Of a stretch of DNA of 64,000 nt, positions 23,947 to 51,185 are shown in pieces; the stretch's first letter is position 1, and each line of letters begins with the position of its first letter. The stretch spans positions 1 to 64,000 of IMG/VR virus record IMGVR_UViG_3300023179_000072. One strand, given 5' to 3'. The translations under genes and the position numbers were made by a program. The DNA is from a virus. A model generated the notes under the pieces. The model had not been told where the DNA came from. It worked only from the letters and a program-made list of their open reading frames with translations, and ran no database searches.

Positions 23947-25155
23947 TTTGTTGCCCATTCATGCCCTATTTACCATAATTAAAGAATTGATTGTGTTGAA
24001 TAGACGGTTGTATTTGCCTTAAACGGTTAAGAATAATGGTCAAATTTTTAGCTTCTGGAACTATTTTTTCATGCAAAGTATCTCCAATAATCCTTTTGAT
24101 CAGAGCAATTTCTTTATCTGTCAACAATACATTTTTATACATTTTTCCCTCAAATACTAACTTATTCTTCCCTTATACCTCACTATACCACACACCATAC
24201 CATTTGTCAACACAAGCCTTATATCGACAGTTTGATAAAATACTCTTTAAACTATTTTCCAACAGCCCCCTCGTACCACGGCATAGCATAATAAGTGAAA
24301 TATAATCAAATTAAGGCTAAAATATAAGCTATTAGCTCAAAAAACCCTTATTTGTCGGATGTATATGATTTGGAAGAGGAAAAAGAAGGGGTATTTTTAA
24401 GGGGAGATAATGATTTTAATAGATAAAAATGCACAGAAATCATAGAAACCAGAGTCAAAACAGCAATAAATACTAGATTCTGGATAAAAGGAATGTAAAA
24501 TTCGTTAATTTTTGATTTTTTCATTTTTGATCTCTAATTGATAGTGCTAAAGATTTTATGATATGATGCAGATAGGAATCTTATGGACTATTAAATTTGA
24601 CCAGTATCCCATATAGTATGTATAGTAGTAGTAGTAATAATAAGGATAGTAATATTATGTTTTGGTTATATATCATAACAATGATTATTTCTTGGGAAAA
24701 ATTTTATCTATAAAATATGTTATTAAGTCTATGACTATAACCACCATTACAATACATAATACAATACTTATAACAATATCAGTATTATTAATAGTATATA
24801 TAAGCTCGCTGACTATTTCCATAAATTCGAACTGGATATATTAGGTATGACAGATCGGTTCTTTCATTAGTAGTATAACTGAGCCAGACTATGATTTCAA
24901 GAGACTATATTTTTATGTTCTAATTTAGGAATAAGACTACTAGTATCATCATAAGGTTTTTTAATATCAATAACTATAATATGATCAGTCAAATCAATAT
25001 TATTATTATCTTTCCTATAATTTGTAATAGCCTCATGAAATTTTTTACAAATATAATTACAGTCCATTGTGGGTTGTAACTTGATACTGGTGATCATAAT
25101 ACTTTGTTACTGACTGTTACCATAAAAGCCGAACAGGATATATTAGGTAGAACAA

Positions 25156-25228
25156 AGCAAGAGATGGGAATCGAACCCACGACATTTTGATTGGAAATCA
25201 AATACTCTACCAACTGAGTTACTCTTGC
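25156..25228 (-). tRNA. trnG: tRNA-Gly (TCC)
   Basis: Cloverleaf; TTTGA-TTTCCAA-TCAAA; GGTTCGATTCC; CCA not encoded. Confidence 0.92.
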
Positions 25229-25309
25229 TTAATTATTATTTTAGATTTGTGCTATTTAATAGTAATCCTAATATAAAAATGAGTAATACAATAATAATTA
25301 TATTTATAA

Positions 25310-28794: not shown

Positions 28795-29806
28795 ATTTTT
28801 TTCTAATTGGTACTATTTATGTGAAAACCGGCCAAATCCCTATTAACATTCTTACAACACTCTTTTAATTTTTCAGGATTAATAATATCCCCTAAATGTA
28901 AAAGTGCTTCATATGTTTTATCATCAATAGTATCATACTTCAAAGCATCATGAAACAAATAGAAATATCTGGTTTCTATCTCTTTTAAAAGAGTATTAAC
29001 TTGTTTATTAAGATATACTATACTATTTAAATCGCCCACCATACTAATTAACCCTCTCTTTATACTTATACTTGAATATTTTCTTTAGAACTTTTTATAC
29101 TATCAATTTCCCAACTTTCCATATAAATAGTATTCTCATCAGGATACTGGATCATTAATTCGGTCAGTTTTATATAGCGTCCATTTTAGATTTACAATTT
29201 CTCATAACAATATTTACATTAACATAATAATAAGTTTTATCAGTTTCTTCCTGCATAATCAATGGACTCCCATTTGTTGCTGACTATCACCACGACCGCC
29301 AAATCCGAAGGATAAGGTGCGACAGTAAAGGGTTCCAATATAAGCCAGACTACTAACAATAGTCTTATAAAGTTGGTGTTCATAATACTGAGATTTTGTC
29401 TCAAATATTTTCTACCACTTTTACTATCACTATCCCACACACCAGTATACCATACTTTGCTACTGGTGGCAAGTCTTTTAGTTTCAAGGGTTTATGTTGA
29501 ATCATCTCTTTTACTATTTGATCATATTCTGGCTGACTATCGGCATGTGGGGCAAACCGGCTAGATAAGGTGGTACAGTTTAGGTATTCTCTTTTTTTAC
29601 AAAACCTATTATAATTTTTATCTAAACCCTTTATTTCCATATACTTACAACCCCACCCCCCTATCCATTATATCGGCAGTCTGGCCTTTGTAAATTAGAA
29701 AACTTTCGTAACCCCTTATGGATATTAAACTTACGACAAATTTTACGGGCCCCGGTCGTCACAAGTCCTTTGCTAGCAAGCACTTACGCACTTACCCACA
29801 ATCTAC

Positions 29807-29850
29807 AAAAAAAAGGAAGCCGCCCCCCATTTCTGAGGGACGGCCTCCCC
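29807..29850 (-). terminator. Intrinsic terminator after the DUF932 gene
   Basis: GGGGAGGCCGTCCC..GGGGCGGCTTCC followed by T8. Confidence 0.85.
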
Positions 29851-29877
29851 GAGCCACGCACCACGAAAGGAGAGCGA

Positions 29878-30825
29878 TTAGATAGCGCTCGCAAACTCGA
29901 CGGCTGTATTTAGAGCCTTGAGATTGTCCACGCCATTCTGGCCGAACCAGAGAGAGTCGAGGCGGTTGCTTACCGTGCGACCCTTAGTGTAGTTCAGGTA
30001 TTCGTTGAAACCGTTGTATGCAGCCCACCACGTTCCGCGAACCCCAACCGCACTCTGCTTCGGTCCTTCGACGAGCGTAAGAATCTCGTCCATGATGTTG
30101 CGAGTACGAGTTTTGATATCCTCGTCCGGGGTCTTATCAATCCCGAGCAGCACCTTGACGTACTTACGAACGTCGTTTTGGTTGAAGTCTTTCGACGCGA
30201 GGAACCGATACTGTTCCGCAGTCGCCTCAAACTGTGCATTGATATTGTCCATGATATCTCGCACATTTTCCAAATTCGTCTTGCTGGAACGGGTATGACG
30301 AATCCTAATAAGTGAACTCTCTTTGCTGCTATGAGCAGCGGCGAGGGTGTTCACACACACAACCCGAATCGGCGTATAGCCGACGCGAATCGACGTTGTG
30401 CCGTCGTGACTGTTAGATAGCAGGATGAACTTGCTCACCTCGTCACCCTTGACAATCTCGCAATTGTCGCGGTTGAGTTGAGCCAGTACCCAAACCTTCT
30501 CGCCTTCACTGAGCGAACCGGCAGTGTGCAGTTGGCACTCGCCAGCATCGAGGAACGGCTGGAACCAGTCGAACGCATCCTGATTTTGCAGGGGCGTATA
30601 ACGGGGGCCAACCACTCCCAGAACACGGTTGTCGGTCTTGCGGAAAGTCGCCTTGGCATTGACCTCCGTACCTTCAGCCGTAAAGAGCGGCTTGGTTCCG
30701 ACCTCCCAATCCAGACCAGCAGCGGTAATCGCCTCGCTGATCGACGGATTCTCATCCAATTGCGTACCCTCACCGTGCCAAGGGGTGGCACCGACGAACA
30801 TCATCTTTTCAACCATAGCGGGCAT
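29878..30825 (-). CDS. DUF932-family phage/plasmid protein (TIGR03299-like)
   Basis: PWHG-G, AGLDW-V, LGVVG-RY-PLQN, TAGSL-xG, NSHDG, TPIRVVC-NTL, HT; AAGGAG RBS; GC-rich. Confidence 0.92.
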   Translation of the reverse strand: MPAMVEKMMFVGATPWHGEGTQLDENPSISEAITAAGLDWEVGTKPLFTAEGTEVNAKATFRKTDNRVLGVVGPRYTPLQNQDAFDWFQPFLDAGECQLHTAGSLSEGEKVWVLAQLNRDNCEIVKGDEVSKFILLSNSHDGTTSIRVGYTPIRVVCVNTLAAAHSSKESSLIRIRHTRSSKTNLENVRDIMDNINAQFEATAEQYRFLASKDFNQNDVRKYVKVLLGIDKTPDEDIKTRTRNIMDEILTLVEGPKQSAVGVRGTWWAAYNGFNEYLNYTKGRTVSNRLDSLWFGQNGVDNLKALNTAVEFASAI

Positions 30826-30870
30826 AACTAACTCCTTCGTGTCTAAGAACTTTTGCTTTGATAGTCTAAG

Positions 30871-30896
30871 TATACTACTATTATCGGCTCTGTCAA
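30871..30896 (-). promoter_or_regulatory. Representative sigma70-type early promoter (TTGACA..CCGATAATA..TATACT)
   Basis: The same TTGACA-N-CGATAA-N-TAnAAT pattern recurs left of most 76-bp elements and at ~6750, 13450, 15860, 18830, 23300. Confidence 0.8.
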
Positions 30897-30987
30897 GGGG
30901 CAAACTTGCGAAAAAATTTCGTGACGCAAGTCGTTGGTATACAAGCACTTACGTCGGGCGGGGCCGCCCCGGTTTGCTCTAAGTCTT

Positions 30988-31485
30988 TTATGGTGAAGGA
31001 TTTAGGAGAGGCATACCATATTTCTTTTCAAAAAGTTTTGATGTTTCTGAGGTATACGCACACTCTTCTGGAATATAACAATACAATCCAACACATCTGG
31101 CCTTCGGATTATCCTCATGAATTGCTTGCTTAATCCATTTAAGAGTATCGCCAGAACAAATTAGATCATCCACTACAATATAACGAAAAGGAGAAACTCC
31201 CTCGATATGGAAATTACTATATCTTTTTTCATCAGGCTTACGAACAATCACAATGTTCTTATTCAGAATTTCACAAACTTGAGGGGTAACAACTAACCCG
31301 CTTACGCCACAACACGCAATACTATCAAAAGTATTAATTATCTTTCGTAGATTACATACTGCCTTAATGATTATTTTATTTCTATTCTTGTGATTTAGCA
31401 CCTGACAAGTATGAGAGGCTCCTTGGATAATTTGTCCATCTGCTGTGCGACGAACATCTTCAATACTTTGATTCATTATATTCAT
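30988..31485 (-). CDS. Phosphoribosyltransferase-fold protein
   Basis: IVVDDLICSGDT PRPP-binding motif; IVRK. Confidence 0.85.
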   Translation of the reverse strand: MNIMNQSIEDVRRTADGQIIQGASHTCQVLNHKNRNKIIIKAVCNLRKIINTFDSIACCGVSGLVVTPQVCEILNKNIVIVRKPDEKRYSNFHIEGVSPFRYIVVDDLICSGDTLKWIKQAIHEDNPKARCVGLYCYIPEECAYTSETSKLFEKKYGMPLLNPSP

Positions 31486-31581
31486 AAAAACGGATGGTAC
31501 GATTCGAACGTACTATAAGATAAGAAATAAAGAGAGATAATACTTGTCCCACCAAGTCGCATCCGTTAGAGAGAAGATCAA

Positions 31582-31779
31582 TTACTCATCATCTATTTCA
31601 TTAGTTAGATTATGATAGTAATTATCCCAGTTGGTGTTTTCAGAATCCTCATAATCTTCGCTATCTTCTTCATCCATCCATGGCTCATCGTTATTACTAT
31701 CATGATAGTAATTTTCGTCAATATAATCGGATTCTGCGACTAACTTGTGATAATCATATTCATATTCATTCAGATTCAT
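31582..31779 (-). CDS. Very acidic small protein
   Basis: D/E/N/Y-rich, 65 aa. Confidence 0.65.
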   Translation of the reverse strand: MNLNEYEYDYHKLVAESDYIDENYYHDSNNDEPWMDEEDSEDYEDSENTNWDNYYHNLTNEIDDE

Positions 31780-31828
31780 TTCTTCTCTCCTTAGACCGAT
31801 TATACACCAACTTTGCTAACTTGTCAAG

Positions 31829-31901
31829 TGGACCCTCTGGGGCTCGAACCCAGAACCAACGGATTAAAAGTCCGCTGCGCTGCCAATTGCGCCAAAGGTC
31901 C
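31829..31901 (-). tRNA. trnK: tRNA-Lys (TTT)
   Basis: GCGGA-CTTTTAA-TCCGT; GGTTCGAGCCC. Confidence 0.93.
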
Positions 31902-31938
31902 GTTTAATTAGCATACCACTAAAATTTTTTTTGTCAAG

Positions 31939-32010
31939 CAGCCCTATGGAGGATCGAACTCCAATCTCCGGGATGAAAGCCCGGTATACTAGCCATTATA
32001 CGATAGGGCC
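31939..32010 (-). tRNA. trnE: tRNA-Glu (TTC)
   Basis: CCGGG-CTTTCAT-CCCGG; AGTTCGATCCT. Confidence 0.92.
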
Positions 32011-32039
32011 ACATCGCAACTCAATCGTCAGCCTCCGAA

Positions 32040-32115
32040 TAGGGCGTCAAGGAGTCGAACCTTGCTCATGAACTGCTTATAAGACAGGTGACCACTACCG
32101 GCGGTCGCACGCCCC
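32040..32115 (-). tRNA. trnI: tRNA-Ile (TAT)
   Basis: GGGGCGT/ACGCCCT acceptor; CCTGT-CTTATAA-GCAGT; GGTTCGACTCC. Confidence 0.82.
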
Positions 32116-32251
32116 ATACTTCAATCATACAATACTTATCGGCACTTGTCAACCAGATACTTGAAAAAATCCTAAGTCGTTACGAGATAAGAACTTACGT
32201 CAAATTCGGCCCGCCACATTTGCTCTAAGTCTTTTATTTCCAACAACTTAG

Positions 32252-32331
32252 TGGTTGGTTAGGGACTCGAACCCCCGAAGCCGAAGCACCTGATCTACAG
32301 TCAGGCCCATTTGCCGCTCTGGAAACTCACC
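32252..32331 (-). tRNA. trnY: tRNA-Tyr (GTA) with two acceptor-stem mismatches (possibly degenerate)
   Basis: CCTGA-CTGTAGA-TCAGG; variable arm; acceptor GGTGAGT/ACCAACC. Confidence 0.75.
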
Positions 32332-32340
32332 TATATATAA

Positions 32341-32427
32341 CAGAGGCCGAGAGAATTGAACTCTCACCGGTTTTATCCGGCCCGCTTTAGCAAAGCGGTG
32401 CAGCAAACCAATATCTGCCTGACCTCT
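32341..32427 (-). tRNA. trnS: tRNA-Ser (GCT)
   Basis: CCGCT-TTGCTAA-AGCGG; long variable arm; G73. Confidence 0.92.
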
Positions 32428-32435
32428 AAATATAA

Positions 32436-32517
32436 CTGCTCGGGCTGGACTTAAACCAGCAAGTCTTTCGACGGTTGATTAACAGTCAACTGCGTTTATC
32501 AATTTCGCCACCGAGCA
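32436..32517 (-). tRNA. trnN: tRNA-Asn (GTT) with an atypical long variable arm
   Basis: TGCTCGG/CCGAGCA, GTTGA-CTGTTAA-TCAAC, variable hairpin GTC-GAAA-GAC, T-loop TTTAAGT. Confidence 0.85.
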
Positions 32518-32522
32518 TCAAA

Positions 32523-32594
32523 TTCCGGAGTCTGGGTACGATCCAGAAATAAAAGGGCCAAAACCTTTTGTGATACCAGTTTCACCACTCCGGA
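32523..32594 (-). tRNA. trnQ: tRNA-Gln (TTG)
   Basis: AAAGG-TTTTGGC-CCTTT; T-loop ATCGTAC. Confidence 0.82.
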
Positions 32595-33116
32595 TCATCT
32601 TCTACATTCTCTGCCATTTCCTCTGTTCATGTTCTTATATGTATCTGTTAATGAGTGACAATTTGGACACAGTATCTGTAAATTATCTTCTTTATTATTT
32701 TTATAGTTACCATCCTTATGATGAATTTCTAGTGGACACTTATTCGTATTTGGATTAATTTTATTCCATCCACACTCTTCACACTTTCTACCTCGTTCTA
32801 TCAATAAAAATTTTTTGATATAGCGTCTTACTGTTCCATTATTTTCACATCCATCATCTTTTCCAAGTTTCCATAACTGTATTTTATTATTATATTGAAA
32901 TATGTTCTGGCATTTAATACTGCAATAAATTTGTCCTTGACCTTTAATTAGATTGCTACAATTTTTACAATATTTAATCTTTTTATTGCGTTTTTTAAAT
33001 AACTTGTTATTTACTTTAGCAGCACAACTACGAGAGCAATAATTTTTTGATGTTTTTTTAATCTCTGATATTTGTTTATTAAATTCTTTATTGCAGCAGT
33101 TACATTTAACTTTCAT
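32595..33116 (-). CDS. HNH endonuclease inserted in the tRNA cluster
   Basis: YCSRSC/YCSIKC repeats; CEECG..LEIHHKDGN..NN..NL..LCPNCHS. Confidence 0.9.
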   Translation of the reverse strand: MKVKCNCCNKEFNKQISEIKKTSKNYCSRSCAAKVNNKLFKKRNKKIKYCKNCSNLIKGQGQIYCSIKCQNIFQYNNKIQLWKLGKDDGCENNGTVRRYIKKFLLIERGRKCEECGWNKINPNTNKCPLEIHHKDGNYKNNKEDNLQILCPNCHSLTDTYKNMNRGNGRECRR

Positions 33117-33191
33117 TTTTTGTTTCTCCTTTTGATACGAATATATACACCAAAAGGAGAACTATTTACCGTTTTTTATTTCAATTCCCAA

Positions 33192-33264
33192 AGCCGGTAG
33201 TAGGATTTGCACCCACGACATTCAAATTACAAATTTGACACTCTGCTAACTGAGTTATACCGGC
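33192..33264 (-). tRNA. trnT: tRNA-Thr (TGT)
   Basis: TCAAA-TTTGTAA-TTTGA; T-loop TGCAAAT. Confidence 0.88.
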
Positions 33265-33267
33265 AAT

Positions 33268-33456
33268 CTACATATCATACTCTTGACGCCAAGCCTTGTC
33301 AATGTCGCGTCGTGTTCGCTGACGCTTGGGCCTGTTGTCCATAGTGGTATCCCGATGCTCCTTGTGACCCGTAGGAACTTGCCACTGTGGCCTGACCTTG
33401 AGTTTGATATGGTTGCGGCGTGGTCGCATATCGTCGTTGTTGTGGAGCGTAATCAT
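33268..33456 (-). CDS. Small basic protein (paralog of 44984..45154)
   Basis: RP-W...GH..H....DNRPKR-RTR. Confidence 0.7.
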   Translation of the reverse strand: MITLHNNDDMRPRRNHIKLKVRPQWQVPTGHKEHRDTTMDNRPKRQRTRRDIDKAWRQEYDM

Positions 33457-33618
33457 GATTTCATCTTACCTAAAAATTTTGCGTTGTCAAGTGCTTTTTT
33501 GGCGTATAATATCCCGTATACTTGTATTTTACACTATAGGGGACAGAATGTCAAGATGAAGAAATTTCAAAATGTGAATGCTTATGTAGGACGTGTCATC
33601 ATATAGACAGACATTATT

Positions 33619-44280: not shown

Positions 44281-44470
44281 GTCATCACTCTCTCTTTCTC
44301 TCATCATTCTACTATCTATTATCGTCAAATGCAAGAGGGAAACTTTAATCTTTCAGTATTGCAAGGATTGTTGTAAAGTATTGGTAAATAAAGACTTATG
44401 GCAAAATAGGCCCCGCCCCGTCAGCCCTAAGTGTTTTAACACAAAGGGTTTATGACGAGTACAGATTTAT

Positions 44471-44701
44471 TCAATCAAAATCCACAAAAATAATCTGATG
44501 ATATCCACGAGGCTTAATAGTCAAACCACTATCATAATCTGTGGTATCAGACTTAACACCCGTCATACCAACCAAAGCCTTAGCCCGCCTAGTAATCTTA
44601 TGCTGAGTAGCGTCGTTCTTCACTGCAAAATCATAACGCTTTACCCAACCATAATTAGGCTCACCACCAAAAGTATCAGTAATCGTTACGGTCGCTTTCA
44701 T
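44471..44701 (-). CDS. Phage protein (TDTFGGE-NY-WV-R family)
   Basis: Recurrent motif; AGGAG RBS. Confidence 0.75.
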   Translation of the reverse strand: MKATVTITDTFGGEPNYGWVKRYDFAVKNDATQHKITRRAKALVGMTGVKSDTTDYDSGLTIKPRGYHQIIFVDFD

Positions 44702-44983
44702 TTTCGAACTCCTTGTTATCAAAAACCAAATCACTCACAAGATAAGACGCCAGAACACCAAACACAAAACCTAAACCAAAAATAGTATAACCATCCATGG
44801 CCCTTTTCCTTTTAATTTACCAGATAGGTAATCAAACACCCTCCAATAAAACTTGCCAACAACACCATTTTTTCCATAAAACTCATTCTTGCACCATTCT
44901 ATATTAGAGTTATCGACATGTCAAGACCACCAACTTTAGGCTGACTATGGCCACCTTCGCCAAATCCGAAGGATTAGGAGAGA

Positions 44984-45154
44984 CTACCAACCATCATTCA
45001 TCGCTTTACGATTCTTAGCCCCACGAGTTCGGAGGCGCTTGGGACGATTATCGTGCTGACCGCTACCCCCAAGGTGGGGATTATGTCCCTTACCAATTTC
45101 CCATACTGGACGAATATTCAGCACCAGTACCATAGGCTTTTTTCGTTTGCTCAT
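44984..45154 (-). CDS. 56-aa basic protein (not in the ORF track), paralog of 33268..33456
   Basis: MSKRKKPMVLVLNIRPVWEIGKGHNPHLGGSGQHDNRPKRLRTRGAKNRKAMNDGW. Confidence 0.7.
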   Translation of the reverse strand: MSKRKKPMVLVLNIRPVWEIGKGHNPHLGGSGQHDNRPKRLRTRGAKNRKAMNDGW

Positions 45155-45297
45155 GTTCTCTACTATACCATATTATCGACAATCGTCAAGCACAATGTTT
45201 AGGAAATCTTTTTGATGTAAAGTGTGAGCCCACAAGGACTTGTGTCAAAAACGGCCCGCCCCCCGCGACGTAAGTCTTTACATCACAAGGGTTTATA

Positions 45298-45507
45298 TCA
45301 CCAATCTGATTGGTCAAAGTCCAGATCAGCATCTTCTAGATGCTCGTCTTGCTCATCGTAATAATCGTCATCATCTTCCGTAGAATAGTTATCGGAGTGG
45401 TAATCGTCGTATCGCTCTGCAATCTCATCATACATATGTTCAGTGTCGGCAGTCCAGCCGCCGATGTGCGATTCCATGAACGAGTCGAGGAAAGAATCTT
45501 CAAACAT
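45298..45507 (-). CDS. Very acidic small protein
   Basis: D/E-rich, 69 aa; GGAG RBS. Confidence 0.7.
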   Translation of the reverse strand: MFEDSFLDSFMESHIGGWTADTEHMYDEIAERYDDYHSDNYSTEDDDDYYDEQDEHLEDADLDFDQSDW

Positions 45508-45686
45508 GAGCCTATCTCCAAGTGGTGGTGTTACTGAACTTCGCTTAGTCTACATCTATTATCGTCGCTTGTCAAGCGCATTCTTGAAAAATTTTTTACT
45601 ATTCGTAAACCATTGATATATAAGCACTTACAACTAGCGCGGTCCGGCCCCGTTGCTACAAGTGCTGTAGCAGCAAGGGTTTACGT

Positions 45687-46376
45687 TTAGTAATCGCCGC
45701 AAGTATCCAAGCGTACAGGCTCGCTTCTAAATGAACATACGTTCAGTCCGCTAGCAGCAGTTACAGCGTCAAGTTGTATGCCTAGAAACTCTTGTCGTTC
45801 CATAGCATTAGTATCATTATGATTTGGCAATTCCAAAACAAACTCATGCCAGAGCGGCATTTCATAGCCGTGTTCATCTTCCACTACAATATCGTAAAAA
45901 CGATAGTTATTCATTAGTAATCTTCTCCATAAAAGGAACCATCATCATTATCATAGTATCCGTAATCTTCGTTCGTTCCATAACCTGCGGACGCAAGACC
46001 GGATTCATGATCTCCGTCCATGCTATCATTGTAATCGTCATTCCAGAAATTATCTTCTGGCGGAGCAGGCGGAATATCATTATCGTCCTCATAAAAATCA
46101 TTGTAATCGTCGTAGTTCATATCATCCTCATAAGCGTTATCGGGATCGAACAGAGGATCGGGGTGACTCATAGACTATTCTCCTTTTTCAAGAAACATAC
46201 CACACTTCGCCGCTATCATCAACCATCTCTTCCGGCTCAAACTCATCCACGATGCCGATCACATCGGCCCAGTCCCAAAAATCCACATTGATACTGTAAT
46301 CGTCAATCGGTTCCACCGTACCCTCATCACGCATTTCGGACAGAATCCGGTTCACATCCTCAAAATCGTTCAGCAT
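45687..46376 (-). other. Three acidic small genes (45687..45914, 45914..46171, 46188..46376)
   Basis: 45914 contains DSMDGDHESGLASAGYGTNEDYG. Confidence 0.7.
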
Positions 46377-46564
46377 GGTAGCGTTCTCCGTTGTGATGCT
46401 CTGAGTCTACACTATTTATCGACCATTGCAAGAGGCAAACTTAGAAAATAATCTTGTGCCAAACAAAAAAAATATTATTTGTTGTAAGTTGTTGTAGGAT
46501 AAGCACTTACGCTTAGCGGGGCCTGCCTTACTGATCATAAGTTCTTATGCAGCAAGGGCTTATG

Positions 46565-46861
46565 TCAACATACACTTTCAGCCTTTACCGACAGTTCCTG
46601 TGCCATAGCCTTACCCATCTTGAACTTGACGGTCTTGCGAGCCTCAATCATAACGGTTTCGCCAGTACGAGGATTACGAGCCTTACGAGCCTTAGATTCA
46701 ACCACGTTGAAAACACCAAAATTACGCAGTTCGATTCGTCCTTCACTGACAAGAGTAGCCATCAGTTCATCCAAAGTGTGCTGGACTATGGCCTTAGCCT
46801 GCAAACCAGTAATGCCACACTTCTCAGCAATCCGTTCGGCCATATCACGCTTAGTATTCAT
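46565..46861 (-). CDS. IHF/HU-family DNA-bending protein
   Basis: TK..GRIELRNFGVF..ARKARNPRTGE-V-I..V-FK-GK; resembles planctomycete IHF subunits. Confidence 0.93.
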   Translation of the reverse strand: MNTKRDMAERIAEKCGITGLQAKAIVQHTLDELMATLVSEGRIELRNFGVFNVVESKARKARNPRTGETVMIEARKTVKFKMGKAMAQELSVKAESVC

Positions 46862-47065
46862 TCTGCTCTCTCTTTCTTGTCTGATCATTCTATACTTATT
46901 ATCGACCAAAGTCAAGCCCCAGTATAAAAAAACTTTGCTTATAATCTCGTAAGATTTCTTATGGCAAATACCGTGCCAAAGCCGTAAGTCGTTAGCCAGC
47001 AAGCACTTGCGGCAAATCTGGCCCGCCGGCCTTGTCCTAAGTGTTTTAGGCTCAAGGCTTTATGT

Positions 47066-47377
47066 TCAAGGACCAATAACCATTCCACTATAGAACGGGA
47101 ACACCTGTTCACCTTTACTCACAAACCACTTAAAGTTTTTCTGAAATACAGTATACGGACTATACTGATTGATTCGATCCTTCGTGGTACTGGTTTGCCA
47201 GCCCCCATTGCTGAGGGTATACGTTCCATCCTCATGGATTCTCACCACGCAAGTACGATGCAGCGTGATGCCCACGCTACCATCACTCAAAATCTCCGCA
47301 TAAGTATTATTACCAACCTTACGACGGTTAGCATTACGCTTACCACGAACCATAGAAACTGCTTGTGAGTGAGTCAT
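47066..47377 (-). CDS. Phage protein (GGW-T-TTK-R-N family)
   Basis: Recurrent motif. Confidence 0.75.
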   Translation of the reverse strand: MTHSQAVSMVRGKRNANRRKVGNNTYAEILSDGSVGITLHRTCVVRIHEDGTYTLSNGGWQTSTTKDRINQYSPYTVFQKNFKWFVSKGEQVFPFYSGMVIGP

Positions 47378-47397
47378 ATTTACCCTTTATGTAATTT

Positions 47398-49552
47398 TCA
47401 AGAAACGCCCATGTATGAAGAGTTCTTCACACAATAATCATAAAACATCTCGTTCAACACTTCGCTATAGTTTTCGTAAGTCAAACGCTTCTTAGAACAA
47501 GTAGACTGACACTCTGCAAAAAACTTTCCAGAACTAACTTCATACACAATGGTGCAAGCGTAAGACTCGCTACCCCAAATCCTAGCCTTGCAGTCGATAA
47601 ACTTCTTGAACATCTTTCTCTCTCTTTCTTCCTTCTCTATCTCTTATATCGACATTATACCGCAGCATTCTTTAGTTGCAAGATAAAACTTTCCTTGCAA
47701 TGCTGTAAGGTTTAGCTCAGCAAAAAGCGTGCCAAAATAGTTGGTGTCATAAGTTGTTGTGTGGCAAGTACTTACGTCAAATCCGGCCCGCCATATTTGC
47801 TGTAAGTGCTTATACAGCAAGGGCTTATGCATTATGCTGAAACTTTGTTAAGCATGATCATCAACCTTCCCAATGGAAAGGTGAAACTTCAGCATTATTT
47901 GCCATAATAGCCTGATACTGATCCTTCAAGGCTTCAACCCTTTCACGAGAACCGGGCTTTCCAACCTTGAGAATCATGGTATCCTCACCACCAATCAGAC
48001 GAGGATCAGCCTTTTCATCCCTAACCTTGCCAATACGACGTAAAGCCTTGCGATTGAATTTCAGCACCTTTTCACTGCTGATCGGACCATACACATGGTT
48101 TGCCAAAGACGGCTGATGACGAATAGCAATTCCAACAAACGTCATACGAGCCTGAATCTTAGCCTTTTCGATGATAGGGAACTTGGTTTTCATTTTTCTT
48201 TCTCTCTTTCTTGTATTTGGATTATAGCAGGATTTTTTTGGATTGCAAGACAAAAGTTTCCTTGCAATGTCGTAAGATTCAGCAGAGCAAATGCTGTGCC
48301 AAATATTGAGCAAATCATGTTGAACATAAAGTGTTGCGGCATAAAGACTTACATCAAATCCGGCCCGCCCGCTTTGCCGCAAGTCTTTTAGCGACAAGGG
48401 GTTACGTTCAATCCCCACTCAGGAAGGGGTATCGCTCTTGAAGCACCCTATCCGTCTCATCCCACACAGCGTCCTGCTCGACACGGACGCAGTAGTCGTT
48501 CAGCTTCTGGTAGAACGTAGCCGCATCCCGAAGCAAAACATTTTCGGGAAAATTGTTGATTCGTACGAAAAATCCACCACCCCCCGTTGAGGTGATATCA
48601 AAACGCACGTCATCATGCATCATATCATAGATAGCGTCGATGATTTCCTGAGCCGTAACGATTCGACCAAGCATTTCTTTTTCCTTTTCTCTCTTTCTCT
48701 TTCCAGAATTGTATGCAATTTTTCCGCCGCGTCAATCCCTCAAACGAGGGATCGGTTTTCGCTAGCGATTTTCGCATAGAGAGAATCGTACACAGTACGA
48801 TGAACACAGTCCAAATCAACACTCTTCAAGGTATAGTAGCCGACAATATTGTCAAAAATATGGTACTTGTCACCTTCCTTGACAATCGTAAAACCCACCC
48901 GATAGGCGTAATAGTTGATCTTTGCACGAATAGTGCTATACTTCGGCATCTTGCGAATCTTTCTCATGTTCTTCTCTCTCTTTCTCTTTCTTCTCTACTT
49001 CTTATATCGACATTATACAGGGTCTATCTTGAGTTTTCAAGAGAAATCCTGAAATTTTTCTGTCAAGAAATTTTGACAAAACTTTTTGGATTTTTCATAT
49101 GCTTTGGCATACCATATGCTAGAGCAAAAAGTGTGCCATACTAGCAATTCGCCCTAAGTCTTTACGCTGTAAGTACTTACATCAAATCCGGCCCGCCATA
49201 TTTGCTGTAAGTGCTTATACGACAACGGTTTATGGCTTCACAAAATTTCGTATAAGATTTCTGTTAAGCATTGAGCACCTGTACAGTAGTGTATGTTACA
49301 AAAACGCTAAACACTAACAACCCTATAATTTCAGGCATTCCTACCTTCTTTCCAACCAGCAAACACCAAAGTAAACTCCTTACCGGGATATTTGGCAGCA
49401 ATATAAGCACGAGCAGTCTCTTCACGATTGTCGGAAGCAGACACACCCTGAACACCAACACCATCAATCATAACATTCCAAATCCTACGCTTAGGAAACT
49501 TCACCCTAGGCAGGCTTCGGATAAACTGATTCACACTAGTAACCTTTTGCAT
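47398..49552 (-). other. Small cassette genes (47398..47613, 47861..48193, 48408..48674, 48740..48967, 49331..49552)
   Basis: Each is preceded by a (GA)n purine leader and a promoter. Confidence 0.7.
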
Positions 49553-49825
49553 TTTCTCTCTCTCTCTCTCTTTCTCTACAAACCAATCTACCAAACTTTT
49601 TCCGCCGCGTCAATCCCCCTAATGAGGGATAAATTTTCATCACGGCATTGTTACGCCAACAATCAAACCGAAAATAGCCACAACGCAAAAAATGCAAACC
49701 ATAAACGAAACCCTTTCTTTCTTCTCTATCTCTTATATCGACATTATACCACGGTATTCTTTAGTTGCAAGAAAAAAATTTCCTTGCAATGCTGTAAGGT
49801 TTAGCTCAGCAAATATTGTGCCAAA
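47632..49825. repeat. ~105-bp near-identical direct repeat of a promoter block (47632-47736 and 49721-49825)
   Basis: CTTCTCTATCTCTTATATCGACATTATACC..TTGCAAG..CTTGCAATGCTGTAAGGTTTAGCTCAGCAAA..GTGCCAAA. Confidence 0.9.
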
Positions 49826-50024
49826 TATTTAATTCAATAGACTCGCCATAAATCCTTTACCAGATTAGACTTACATCAAATGTGGGCGTCCATATTGATC
49901 ATAAGTCTTTATACCTCAATAACATAGGGGTGGTTTTTCTGTTTTTTTTACCCTTTTCCCAACCCAGACTAAAAGCGGAGGGTGGTTGATACGCAATCGA
50001 AACCAATAAAATATAATGTATTAC

Positions 50025-51185
50025 CTAAACTATCCCTGTAGACCCTTGTTTCTTACTCTTTCTTTGTCTTTTTAGCTGTCTATAAGACAAGCTGAATCTT
50101 CTGTTTCTATTAGAATCCAGTATATCAGGATACTTTTCTTTTAATTTAAGTTCCTTTTCCCATCTGTACGCAGCATATGATACTTTTTTACCGCACCATA
50201 TTTGGTTACCACTCCAGCGGTCAGCAAAATATTGCGTTAACTTGTATAAATCTGCTTTAAACTCTATCCACTTTTCCTCAAATTCTTTTGGAAAATCCCC
50301 GCGTTTATCAAGACTGTTTTGTCTATGGCTTCCTTTTTCTAGATGATCAGGATTAAAGCACCGACCGTTACCACATTTATGTCGTATTAATTCGGGATAC
50401 TCTCCAGTTTTTTCCCAATACGCAACCCTATGCTTTAATAGTGTCTTGGTTTGACCAGAGTCTTTGGATTCGCCAATAGTTACCTGCATTCTAGCATAAC
50501 CACTAACATGAACATCATTACTTTCTTTACATCCCGTCTCATTATTTATAGTATAAAATTTTGTATAAGAATTATACGTAATAGCTTTTTGTAGCCATGG
50601 TCTCAAATATTCTTCGTTATTGGAGGCCCACGTATTCAATAAGCAATTTTTATTGTATTTATTTAGATAATGTGTTTCTTTCCTCAATAGCTCAGCCTCA
50701 CTACACTGCTCAATAATAGCATACTTGATAGTACAGTCTTTATTATTAAAATAAGACAATAACAATTTTGAATTATGCTTATTATGTTTTAAGTCTCTGC
50801 AATGTTCTGTTAGTCTTTTTTTAATGTTTATACTACTACCTATATATAGTTTGATATCATTAATTTTAAAAGCAGCACACGAATCATTTTTGTCATATTT
50901 CCAAACAAAATAAATAGCATAGACACCAGAAACACTATTTTTCATTCGTTTGATATTATTAATAGTTTTCCATTGTTTGATCACAGAATGATCTACATTA
51001 GTTTTTATATCTCTTAGCTTAAACATATTACTCAAATATGCTTTGCTCACATTATATTTTTTTATTAAACTATTAGTAGTAGCACCAGCTGCATATTCTG
51101 CTATTAATTTTCTTTCTTGGTTGCCATTTAATATGGTTTTAATTTTGCGTTTAGTTTTGTCCTTACTGCCTTTTGGTCTTGGCAT
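50025..51185 (-). CDS. Homing endonuclease with GIY-YIG and His-Cys-box/HNH-type domains
   Basis: GVYAI..YIGSS..R..H..E; HRVAY..RHKCGNGRCFNPDHL..N..D; N-terminal PRPKGS AT-hook-like. Confidence 0.8.
   Translation of the reverse strand: MPRPKGSKDKTKRKIKTILNGNQERKLIAEYAAGATTNSLIKKYNVSKAYLSNMFKLRDIKTNVDHSVIKQWKTINNIKRMKNSVSGVYAIYFVWKYDKNDSCAAFKINDIKLYIGSSINIKKRLTEHCRDLKHNKHNSKLLLSYFNNKDCTIKYAIIEQCSEAELLRKETHYLNKYNKNCLLNTWASNNEEYLRPWLQKAITYNSYTKFYTINNETGCKESNDVHVSGYARMQVTIGESKDSGQTKTLLKHRVAYWEKTGEYPELIRHKCGNGRCFNPDHLEKGSHRQNSLDKRGDFPKEFEEKWIEFKADLYKLTQYFADRWSGNQIWCGKKVSYAAYRWEKELKLKEKYPDILDSNRNRRFSLSYRQLKRQRKSKKQGSTGIV

Follow-up and report, generated by a model that had tools for sequence, protein, structure and literature searches.

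Why should the same sequence of about 80 bp stand between one gene cassette and the next, 21 times over, along a single stretch of a phage genome? The stretch lies in the first 64 kb (the window, whose coordinates are used below) of an 81,337-bp viral contig from IMG/VR (IMGVR_UViG_3300023179_000072, here G000) that is estimated to be about 58% complete. A first-pass annotation, made from the letters of the window alone, had described the repeat as pairs of boxes for integration host factor (IHF), set in phase before early promoters. The analysis presented here retains the copies and their link to promoters, and arrives at a different anatomy, that of four copies of a conserved 9-mer held at base-exact distances. 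We see about an even chance that the element is a DNA-level module bound by a regulator in the form of a dimer of dimers, which would co-control or insulate the cassettes, and which would serve secondarily as a joint between them.

A four-site element of fixed geometry

An initial repeat search returned 17-19 copies, from which a profile was built that finds 21 full copies of the element between 29709 and 49929 (E 1e-7 to 1e-22) and none elsewhere in the contig. The copies lie 0.39-1.81 kb apart, in agreement with the 21 intergenic copies at 0.4-1.8 kb first described, and all of them are intergenic with minus-strand genes on both sides, the genes between 29 and 50 kb being without exception on the minus strand. 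Read in gene sense, the arrangement is the end of one gene or tRNA, a copy of the element, and then the next promoter. A matrix for the 25-bp box described below places 41 of its 41 matches on the contig inside the array. All copies are assigned to the minus strand; the profile also matches the opposite strand in 21 of the 21, more weakly in 19, and the element is therefore a quasi-palindrome. Copies 2 (30923..31008) and 4 (33959..34045), for instance, score 65 and 67 bits, and the terminal copies are degenerate: copy 1 (29709..29788), last in transcription order, scores 35 bits on the minus and 24 on the plus strand with nhmmer, and copy 21 (49847..49929), first in transcription order, 33 and 27 bits. 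A half copy consisting of a single box is found at 29463..29497 (profile E 0.014).

An alignment of 195 distinct copies, drawn from 43 contigs, gave the anatomy of the element. The box is a palindrome of 25 bp with the form 9+7+9, in which two inverted copies of TAAGTCCTT surround a 7-bp variable spacer, and the whole element consists of four such 9-mers in two head-to-head pairs (-> <- 28 bp -> <-). The gene-sense consensus is C.TAAa.CCTT, a 7-nt variable spacer, AAggACTTAgGgC.Ag...GgccggCC...tT.G.CGTAAGTcCTT, a second 7-nt variable spacer, and cAAcgacTTAcg.caaa, with a conserved palindromic centre of the GGCCGGCC type between the boxes. Along the inner 9-mers, successive positions are conserved as T (95-97%), A (100%), A (100%), G (84-94%), T (95-97%), C (51-62%), C (70-83%), T (93-95%) and T (90-92%). 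The middle four, G/T/C/C, are the N4 positions that the first-pass annotation had taken to diverge freely, a description that these figures contradict; in the outer 9-mers the N4 positions are looser, at 45-78%. The TAA is retained at 85-100% in all four places, the outer 9-mers being otherwise looser, and it is the 7-bp intra-box spacers and portions of the centre that vary freely. Similarly, of the box pattern first proposed, YAA-N4-TTR-N5-YAA-N4-TTR, the loose YAA-N4-TTR unit fits, but the exact pattern is matched by only 17 of 42 boxes.

The distances between these parts are nearly invariant. From ACTTA to TAAGT there are 33 nt in 182 of 185 copies (42 contigs), and the H3-H4 offset is the same in 183 of the 185. 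The box centres are 53 bp apart, or five helical turns, as first reported, and the module spans 78 bp. Because 53 minus 25 leaves 28, the spacer between the boxes is 28 bp rather than the 30 bp (31 once) given earlier, and is 29 bp once, in copy 13 (44370..44456), the sole copy in the window with a 29-bp centre. Among the 210 paralog pairs of the window genome, identity is 0.75 in the 9-mers and 0.32 in the linkers, against 0.25 for random sequence. The linkers are thus near mutational saturation while the 9-mers are kept, which points to selection on particular bases rather than to recent duplication. These are old copies in which selection maintains the 9-mers; the earlier argument for selection on spacing stands alongside, given the fixed geometry.

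The element is widespread among related phages. Scanned by pattern, IMG/VR yields arrays of several copies in over 35 further viral contigs, the longest of which reach 233 kb. Wherever the family occurs in viral contigs from lake water, it forms a single array within an island of higher GC content. The motif search over the whole contig and related phages that had been proposed as a check thus gives 21 modules with 84 9-mers here, and the word recurs in arrays on more than 40 contigs. Among the relatives, four complete genomes (186-233 kb, CheckV 100%) have arrays of the 17-copy type. In the complete relative G002 (230,691 bp), 17 of 17 copies, and 34 of the 35 box-matrix matches, fall in one 19-kb stretch (161.2-180.7 kb) with a GC content of 0.39-0.44, against about 0.31-0.33 elsewhere; in the window, the array stretch (29700-50000) has a GC content of 0.41-0.45 against about 0.30 in its flanks. 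For such a GC-rich island, seen in both the window and G002 (0.39-0.45 on a backbone of about 0.30-0.33), early-gene codon adaptation and foreign origin are two possibilities. A scan of GTDB genomes yielded short contigs and one of 141 kb, all in metagenome-assembled genomes from lakes and of inconsistent taxonomy, which are probably mis-binned pieces of phage. The orientation of arrays in relatives was taken from cassette synteny.

Promoters beyond the element

Each of the 21 window copies has a promoter after it, within about 20-100 nt, in keeping with the early promoters noted in the first-pass annotation. In 13 of the 21 this is a strong sigma70-type promoter, TTGACA-16/17-TAnAAT, with a common CGATAAT in its spacer, and in three more it is a weaker sigma70-like promoter. 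A -35 hexamer is placed at 30896 for copy 2, at 32152 for copy 3 (32170..32252, which adjoins the 3' end of tRNA-Tyr), at 35228 for copy 5 (35255..35340), at 36144 for copy 6 (36182..36268, which adjoins the stop codon of 36266..36649), at 37497 for copy 7 (37522..37608), at 38587 for copy 8 (38606..38690), at 40163 for copy 9 (40193..40276), at 40771 for copy 10 (40799..40885), at 41616 for copy 11 (41644..41727), at 43425 for copy 12 (43450..43537), and at 45575 for copy 15 (45603..45688). The promoter of copy 9 is representative of the early type, with TTGACA-17-TAGAAT on the minus strand at 40135..40163, CGATAAT in its spacer, and a distance of 31 nt from the element.

The remaining five copies are followed by an exact TGGCAC-N5-TTGC, of the sigma54 -24/-12 type, after 6 nt (copy 17, 46981..47067), 15 nt (copy 18, 47746..47830), 16 nt (copy 20, 49151..49236), and 25 nt (copy 19, 48324..48409, and copy 21). 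These motifs (46900-49830, minus strand) stand about 50-80 nt before a sigma70-type -35, with TTGCAA/TATAAT in three of the five, and they lie within a repeated module of about 113 nt (repeat families D7/D10). No gene for a bacterial enhancer-binding protein (PF00158) was found in the contig or in the four complete relatives, a set referred to below as the five genomes.

The coupling extends to the family as a whole, for which a sigma70 match of at least 9/12 is present within 110 nt downstream in 59-65% of copies, against 1-4% in the 80 nt upstream. Measured from the last base of the element, the gaps to the -35 are not spread evenly but cluster at 19-21, 28-33, 39-44, 52-57, 61-65 and 73 nt, and the Rayleigh statistic is highest for periods of 10.5-11.5 bp (pooled R 0.67-0.69, as compared with a null 99.9th percentile of 0.31). 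When related copies are collapsed to 50 clusters, R is 0.50, a value reached by 0 of 5000 random sets, and for the 35 clusters with gaps of up to 46 nt it is 0.64 (p = 0.0002). The promoter-side box is thus located near -68, -78.5, -89 and so on, and therefore resembles the site of a factor confined to one helix face relative to RNA polymerase.

A second dispersed motif (families D9/D11) is present at 29279-29323, 29532-29576, 37319-37392, 43176-43249 and 44919-44992. In gene sense it carries an AATCC-TTCG-GGATT hairpin and has at its end GGTCTTGACA, which is the -35 for a further set of promoters; there it takes the place of the 80-bp element.

Candidate roles of the element

What we infer from the arrangement is the binding of a protein, and its effect. 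A sequence-specific protein, encoded by either phage or host, would bind the four 9-mers as a pair of dimers on the same helix face and, being positioned just upstream of nearly every cassette promoter, would co-regulate 17-21 otherwise independent transcription units. The effect of binding could be class I-like activation, a coordinated or timed shut-off, or insulation against read-through. Secondarily, the modules would be where related phages gain and lose entire cassettes, in the manner of the promoter-early stem-loops (PeSLs) of T4-type phages, and the box on the stop-codon side may provide the upstream mRNA with a 3' hairpin. The four half-sites, the palindromes five turns apart, the palindromic centre, the lack of conserved pairing, the confinement to positions upstream of promoters, and the phasing all fit a protein bound as two dimers, and the fourfold inverted 9-mer is in favour of such a module because a simple hairpin needs only one overall dyad. 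Moreover, the boxes occur only as pairs and, by the matrix counts given above, only in the array; an isolated box outside the array, which might have marked the gene of an autoregulated regulator, was not found with the box matrix.

Several observations weigh against a docked dimer of dimers. Within a box the centres of the half-sites are separated by 16 bp, or 1.5 turns, which is unusual for classical helix-turn-helix dimers, and no member of the HTH_3 family was found in the five genomes. In addition, Pfam and NCBIfam searches of about 40 cassette open reading frames (ORFs) gave no DNA-binding domain other than that of an HU/IHF-family protein. The most conserved cassette protein (about 110 aa, 47864-48193) has a poor AlphaFold model (pLDDT 63, pTM 0.27), and gave no lead in the Atlas. 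The filler between element and promoter is made up of A-tract or UP-like units of about 10 bp, and the phasing may stem from these units rather than from the element. Finally, box 1, on the stop-codon side, is 1.5-1.75 kcal/mol more stable in native copies than in chimeras (p ~1e-6), and in 81 of 185 copies (about 40%) the stop codon ends 2-4 nt before the first TAA. The extra stability and the abutment leave room for a minor RNA-level role of box 1 as a 3' hairpin, although the tight packing of features in a compact genome would also account for the abutment. A fuller version of the docked regulator is put forward only tentatively, and is somewhat less probable than not: a tetramer of a protein from outside the recognisable DNA-binding families, seated on the base-exact 78-bp four-site module in 17-21 copies, would make the 20-kb island a series of individually promoted, insulated cassettes, with the modules doubling as exchange joints across a widespread lineage of lake jumbo phages. 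If so, the exchanged cassettes would include anti-host cargo such as the IHF-like gene, and the array would represent a previously undescribed class of phage regulatory architecture.

The stability of box 1 and its proximity to stop codons are also points in favour of an RNA-level reading, in which read-through into the element creates a hairpin that ends, processes (in RNase III-type fashion) or stabilises the upstream mRNA, thereby insulating the cassettes. RNase III-type processing occurs between the early genes of T7, the element consensus is self-complementary, single copies fold at -22 to -32 kcal/mol (z -1.5 to -3.6), and the region is poor in canonical terminators, so that another 3'-end signal would be needed. 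Nevertheless, the promoter-side box is less stable than its own chimeras, and the 195-copy alignment shows no covariation: for every dyad considered (the whole element, the two boxes, and hairpins centred on H2 or H3) the pairable fraction equals the expectation from column composition at every position, an all-against-all column scan gives no run of pairs in excess, A-C mismatches are as frequent as G-T across copies, and RNAalifold returns no consensus structure. There is no U-tract after the element, the elements are not called as canonical terminators and as a class are not among the terminator-like sites of the region (17 against 12.9 expected), and Rfam at the gathering threshold has no match at them. 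A hairpin would also leave the fourfold 9-mer, the base-exact spacing and the quantised promoter distance unexplained, and action through RNA is judged unlikely. Two specific structures were rejected, namely a long hairpin or cruciform between box A and box B (no covariation, and native copies that fold no better than arm-swapped chimeras) and fixed-register local hairpins at H2, H3 and the box centres (no excess of pairing). The first-pass proposal, that the copies are paired IHF/HU-family sites at which host IHF or a phage HU/IHF protein bends the DNA before promoters, shares with docking the idea of a bound protein and is much less probable still. In its favour, all of the 9/10-mers conform to the loose core of the IHF consensus, YAA-N4-TTR; the exact matches to WATCAANNNNTTR reported at 41648-41660, 43466-43478 and 45606-45618 are present at those positions within elements; and five copies precede sigma54-type -24/-12 motifs, sigma54 promoters being frequent users of IHF. 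There is, too, an HU/IHF-family gene (46565..46861, minus strand; PF00216, 95.7 bits), correctly singled out earlier as one of the cassettes, which is the cargo of cassette E, with copy 16 (46481..46568) adjoining its stop codon, and which is nearer the IHF-alpha model (72 bits, below the cut-off of 111) than the HU models. However, the full consensus WATCAANNNNTTR is not enriched, with 23 occurrences contig-wide, of which 6 fall in the region, where the density over the contig predicts 5.7, and it matches 3 of the 84 half-boxes; the best-kept bases fall within N4, which IHF does not read, while the ATC of the IHF consensus is not conserved; and the element's sites form inverted pairs, with a symmetry that IHF sites do not have. 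By tblastn the gene is missing from the other array loci fetched (about 40 contigs) and from the whole of G002, and no PF00216 match was found in the four complete relatives, so it is the cargo of a cassette found only in the window phage rather than a conserved partner of the element. On these grounds an IHF site array is not supported, and a role for host IHF, in whose favour the sequence offers nothing specific, is improbable; matches to YAA-N4-TTR should not in themselves be taken as evidence for IHF.

A different kind of alternative places the primary role of the element in the shuffling of cassettes, either by homologous exchange, the mechanism attributed to PeSLs, or as the sites of a site-specific recombinase. 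Contigs from the source lakes do contain joints at elements. In three runs the joint 45288->45677 fuses copy 14 (45214..45299) to copy 15 at matching positions with loss of the intervening cassette, the joints 41658->30942, 44379->37570 and 45213->35289 connect copies that are not neighbours, two of these joints having letters that resemble the element where the copies meet, and the joint 36176->36260 belongs to one variant contig in which precisely copy 6 is missing or replaced. In about 30 contigs the arrays are homologous and syntenic and differ by the gain or loss of whole cassettes, E (HU/IHF), G and N being found only in the window phage; the 9+7+9 box resembles the core site of a tyrosine recombinase, and the four sites recall a core with accessory sites. 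On the other hand, neither tyrosine (PF00589) nor serine (PF00239) recombinases were found in the five genomes, the order of cassettes A..T is largely kept, and the differences between copies in the 7-bp spacers would block tyrosine-recombinase exchange. Exchange is to be expected of any dispersed repeat, and would leave the exact geometry and the promoter phasing without explanation. With no recombinase, differing spacers and no target-site duplications flanking the elements, exchange is better regarded as something that follows from dispersed homology than as the function under selection, and recombination as the primary role is quite improbable. The idea that the element is a selfish miniature inverted-repeat element (MITE, Correia-like) that has spread across intergenic sites hardly seems credible. 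It would suit a multi-copy, strictly intergenic quasi-palindrome of about 80 bp and the one contig in which exactly copy 6 is missing or replaced, but the want of target-site duplications, the age of the copies with their saturated linkers, the confinement to one island with none in the other 210 kb of a complete genome, and an orientation that tracks cassette order all speak against it, as does the failure to find a transposase or recombinase (PF00589 and PF00239 searched, five genomes).

Genome context and known systems

DNA of the contig has been detected in lake and freshwater metagenomes from two studies, and near and distant DNA searches of the INPHARED phage collection with the contig gave no isolate match. 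Among the products encoded are large proteins of the virion and baseplate, an RNA ligase, a sigma-like factor and a terminase that is only about 25% identical to those of Bacillus phages; the capsid protein is barely recognisable, and the phage lineage is unrelated to T4. The gene for the sigma-like factor, a weak sigma-70/ECF (extracytoplasmic function)-like match (PHROG 1740; TIGR02937 below cut-off), lies on the plus strand at contig positions 65186-65860 and adjoins the terminase/capsid module. Nine tRNA genes (Lys, Glu, Ile, Tyr, Ser, Asn, Gln, Thr, Arg) are located inside the array on the minus strand (31828-33264 and 35399-35471), with copy 3 of the element, complete with its own promoter, within the cluster; a tRNA-Gly gene (25155-25229) is outside the array. 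HNH endonuclease genes, also on the minus strand, flank the upstream end of the array (50025-51185) and stand beside the tRNA cluster (32595-33116).

Other features of the island concern individual cassettes. Cassette P contains a match to the Pistol ribozyme (Rfam RF02679) on the minus strand at 35665-35727, with 53.9 bits against a gathering score of 34.5, flanked by an 82-aa ORF and tRNA-Arg. Two paralogous, very basic proteins of 56-62 aa with a DNRPKRxRTR motif are encoded on the minus strand at 33268-33456 and 44984-45154; they are kept in 16 array loci, are without a family match, and may bind nucleic acid. The cassette between copies 10 and 11 (40890-41583, minus strand) has a consensus promoter and no credible ORF, and may specify a long non-coding RNA. 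Finally, CT-rich repeats on the plus strand (46866-46892, 47617-47677, 48183-48226, 48957-49035 and 49547-49590) are, in gene sense, polypurine leaders (AAGAAAGAGAGAG) that immediately precede the start codons of the upstream cassettes.

The element provides a sharply specified cis-acting mark, in word, geometry and phasing, of the early or accessory island of abundant uncultured freshwater phages with genomes of 190-230 kb, and thus a handle for annotating such islands and for finding the cognate regulator. If the binding model holds, many strong promoters would answer to a single factor by way of an upstream unit that is modular and portable, an arrangement of relevance to the timing of phage expression and to the design of synthetic promoters.

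Among known systems, the PeSLs of T4-type phages consist of a short, loosely conserved G/C stem-loop together with a sigma70-type early promoter (PMC2839356, PMC4122927). The likeness to PeSLs, proposed in the first-pass annotation together with a difference in motif, is upheld on both counts: in each case a composite motif recurs between genes, directly coupled to an early promoter of the sigma70 type, and is concentrated where small ORFan cassettes lie; whole cassettes distinguish one relative from another, and the joints are found at the motif (here 45288->45677, 41658->30942 and 44379->37570). Here, by contrast, the upstream part is a module of 80 bp in which an identical 9-mer stands four times at base-exact distances, with no covariation of pairs; the phage backbone is not of the T4 type, and some copies precede other types of promoter. 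The idea of regulatory repeats that double as joints for cassette exchange is thereby extended beyond the T4-type phages.

Site-specific recombination offers a more distant comparison. As in integrons, gene ends adjoin a palindrome that is imperfect, and relatives differ in which cassettes they have; however, attC conserves structure and not sequence, whereas here it is the sequence rather than the pairing that is conserved, every cassette has a promoter, and there is no integrase (PF00589 being absent from the five genomes). A resolvase res site or tyrosine-recombinase resolution site does not fit, neither PF00239 nor PF00589 having been found in the five genomes.

The conserved inverted repeats of phiC31, the stoperators of mycobacteriophage L5 and the C1 operators of P1 are multi-copy operator sets of temperate phages, each composed of single 13-17-bp sites for a known repressor. 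What they have in common with the array is one short word at a dozen or more intergenic or promoter-proximal sites of the early region, which makes control by one protein possible; in the array, however, the unit is a four-site 78-bp module that is upstream of the promoter and not over it, and neither a repressor, among the cassette ORFs, nor an integrase, in the five genomes, was found. In the phi29 p4/p6 switch, and in class I activation of the CRP type, dimers bound to inverted repeats upstream act only when in helical phase, and the quantised distances found here resemble the -61.5/-71.5/-82.5 rule, although the motif is different and the module is used 17-21 times per genome rather than once. 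Text searches for the element and its 9-mer yielded no description, in keeping with the earlier statement that none was known, and the 9-mer retrieved only unrelated primers. In kind, then, the element belongs with the dispersed regulatory repeats of phages, such as PeSLs and multi-copy operator sets, and it is the architecture that is new, with four sites in base-exact geometry repeated as 17-21 modules per genome.

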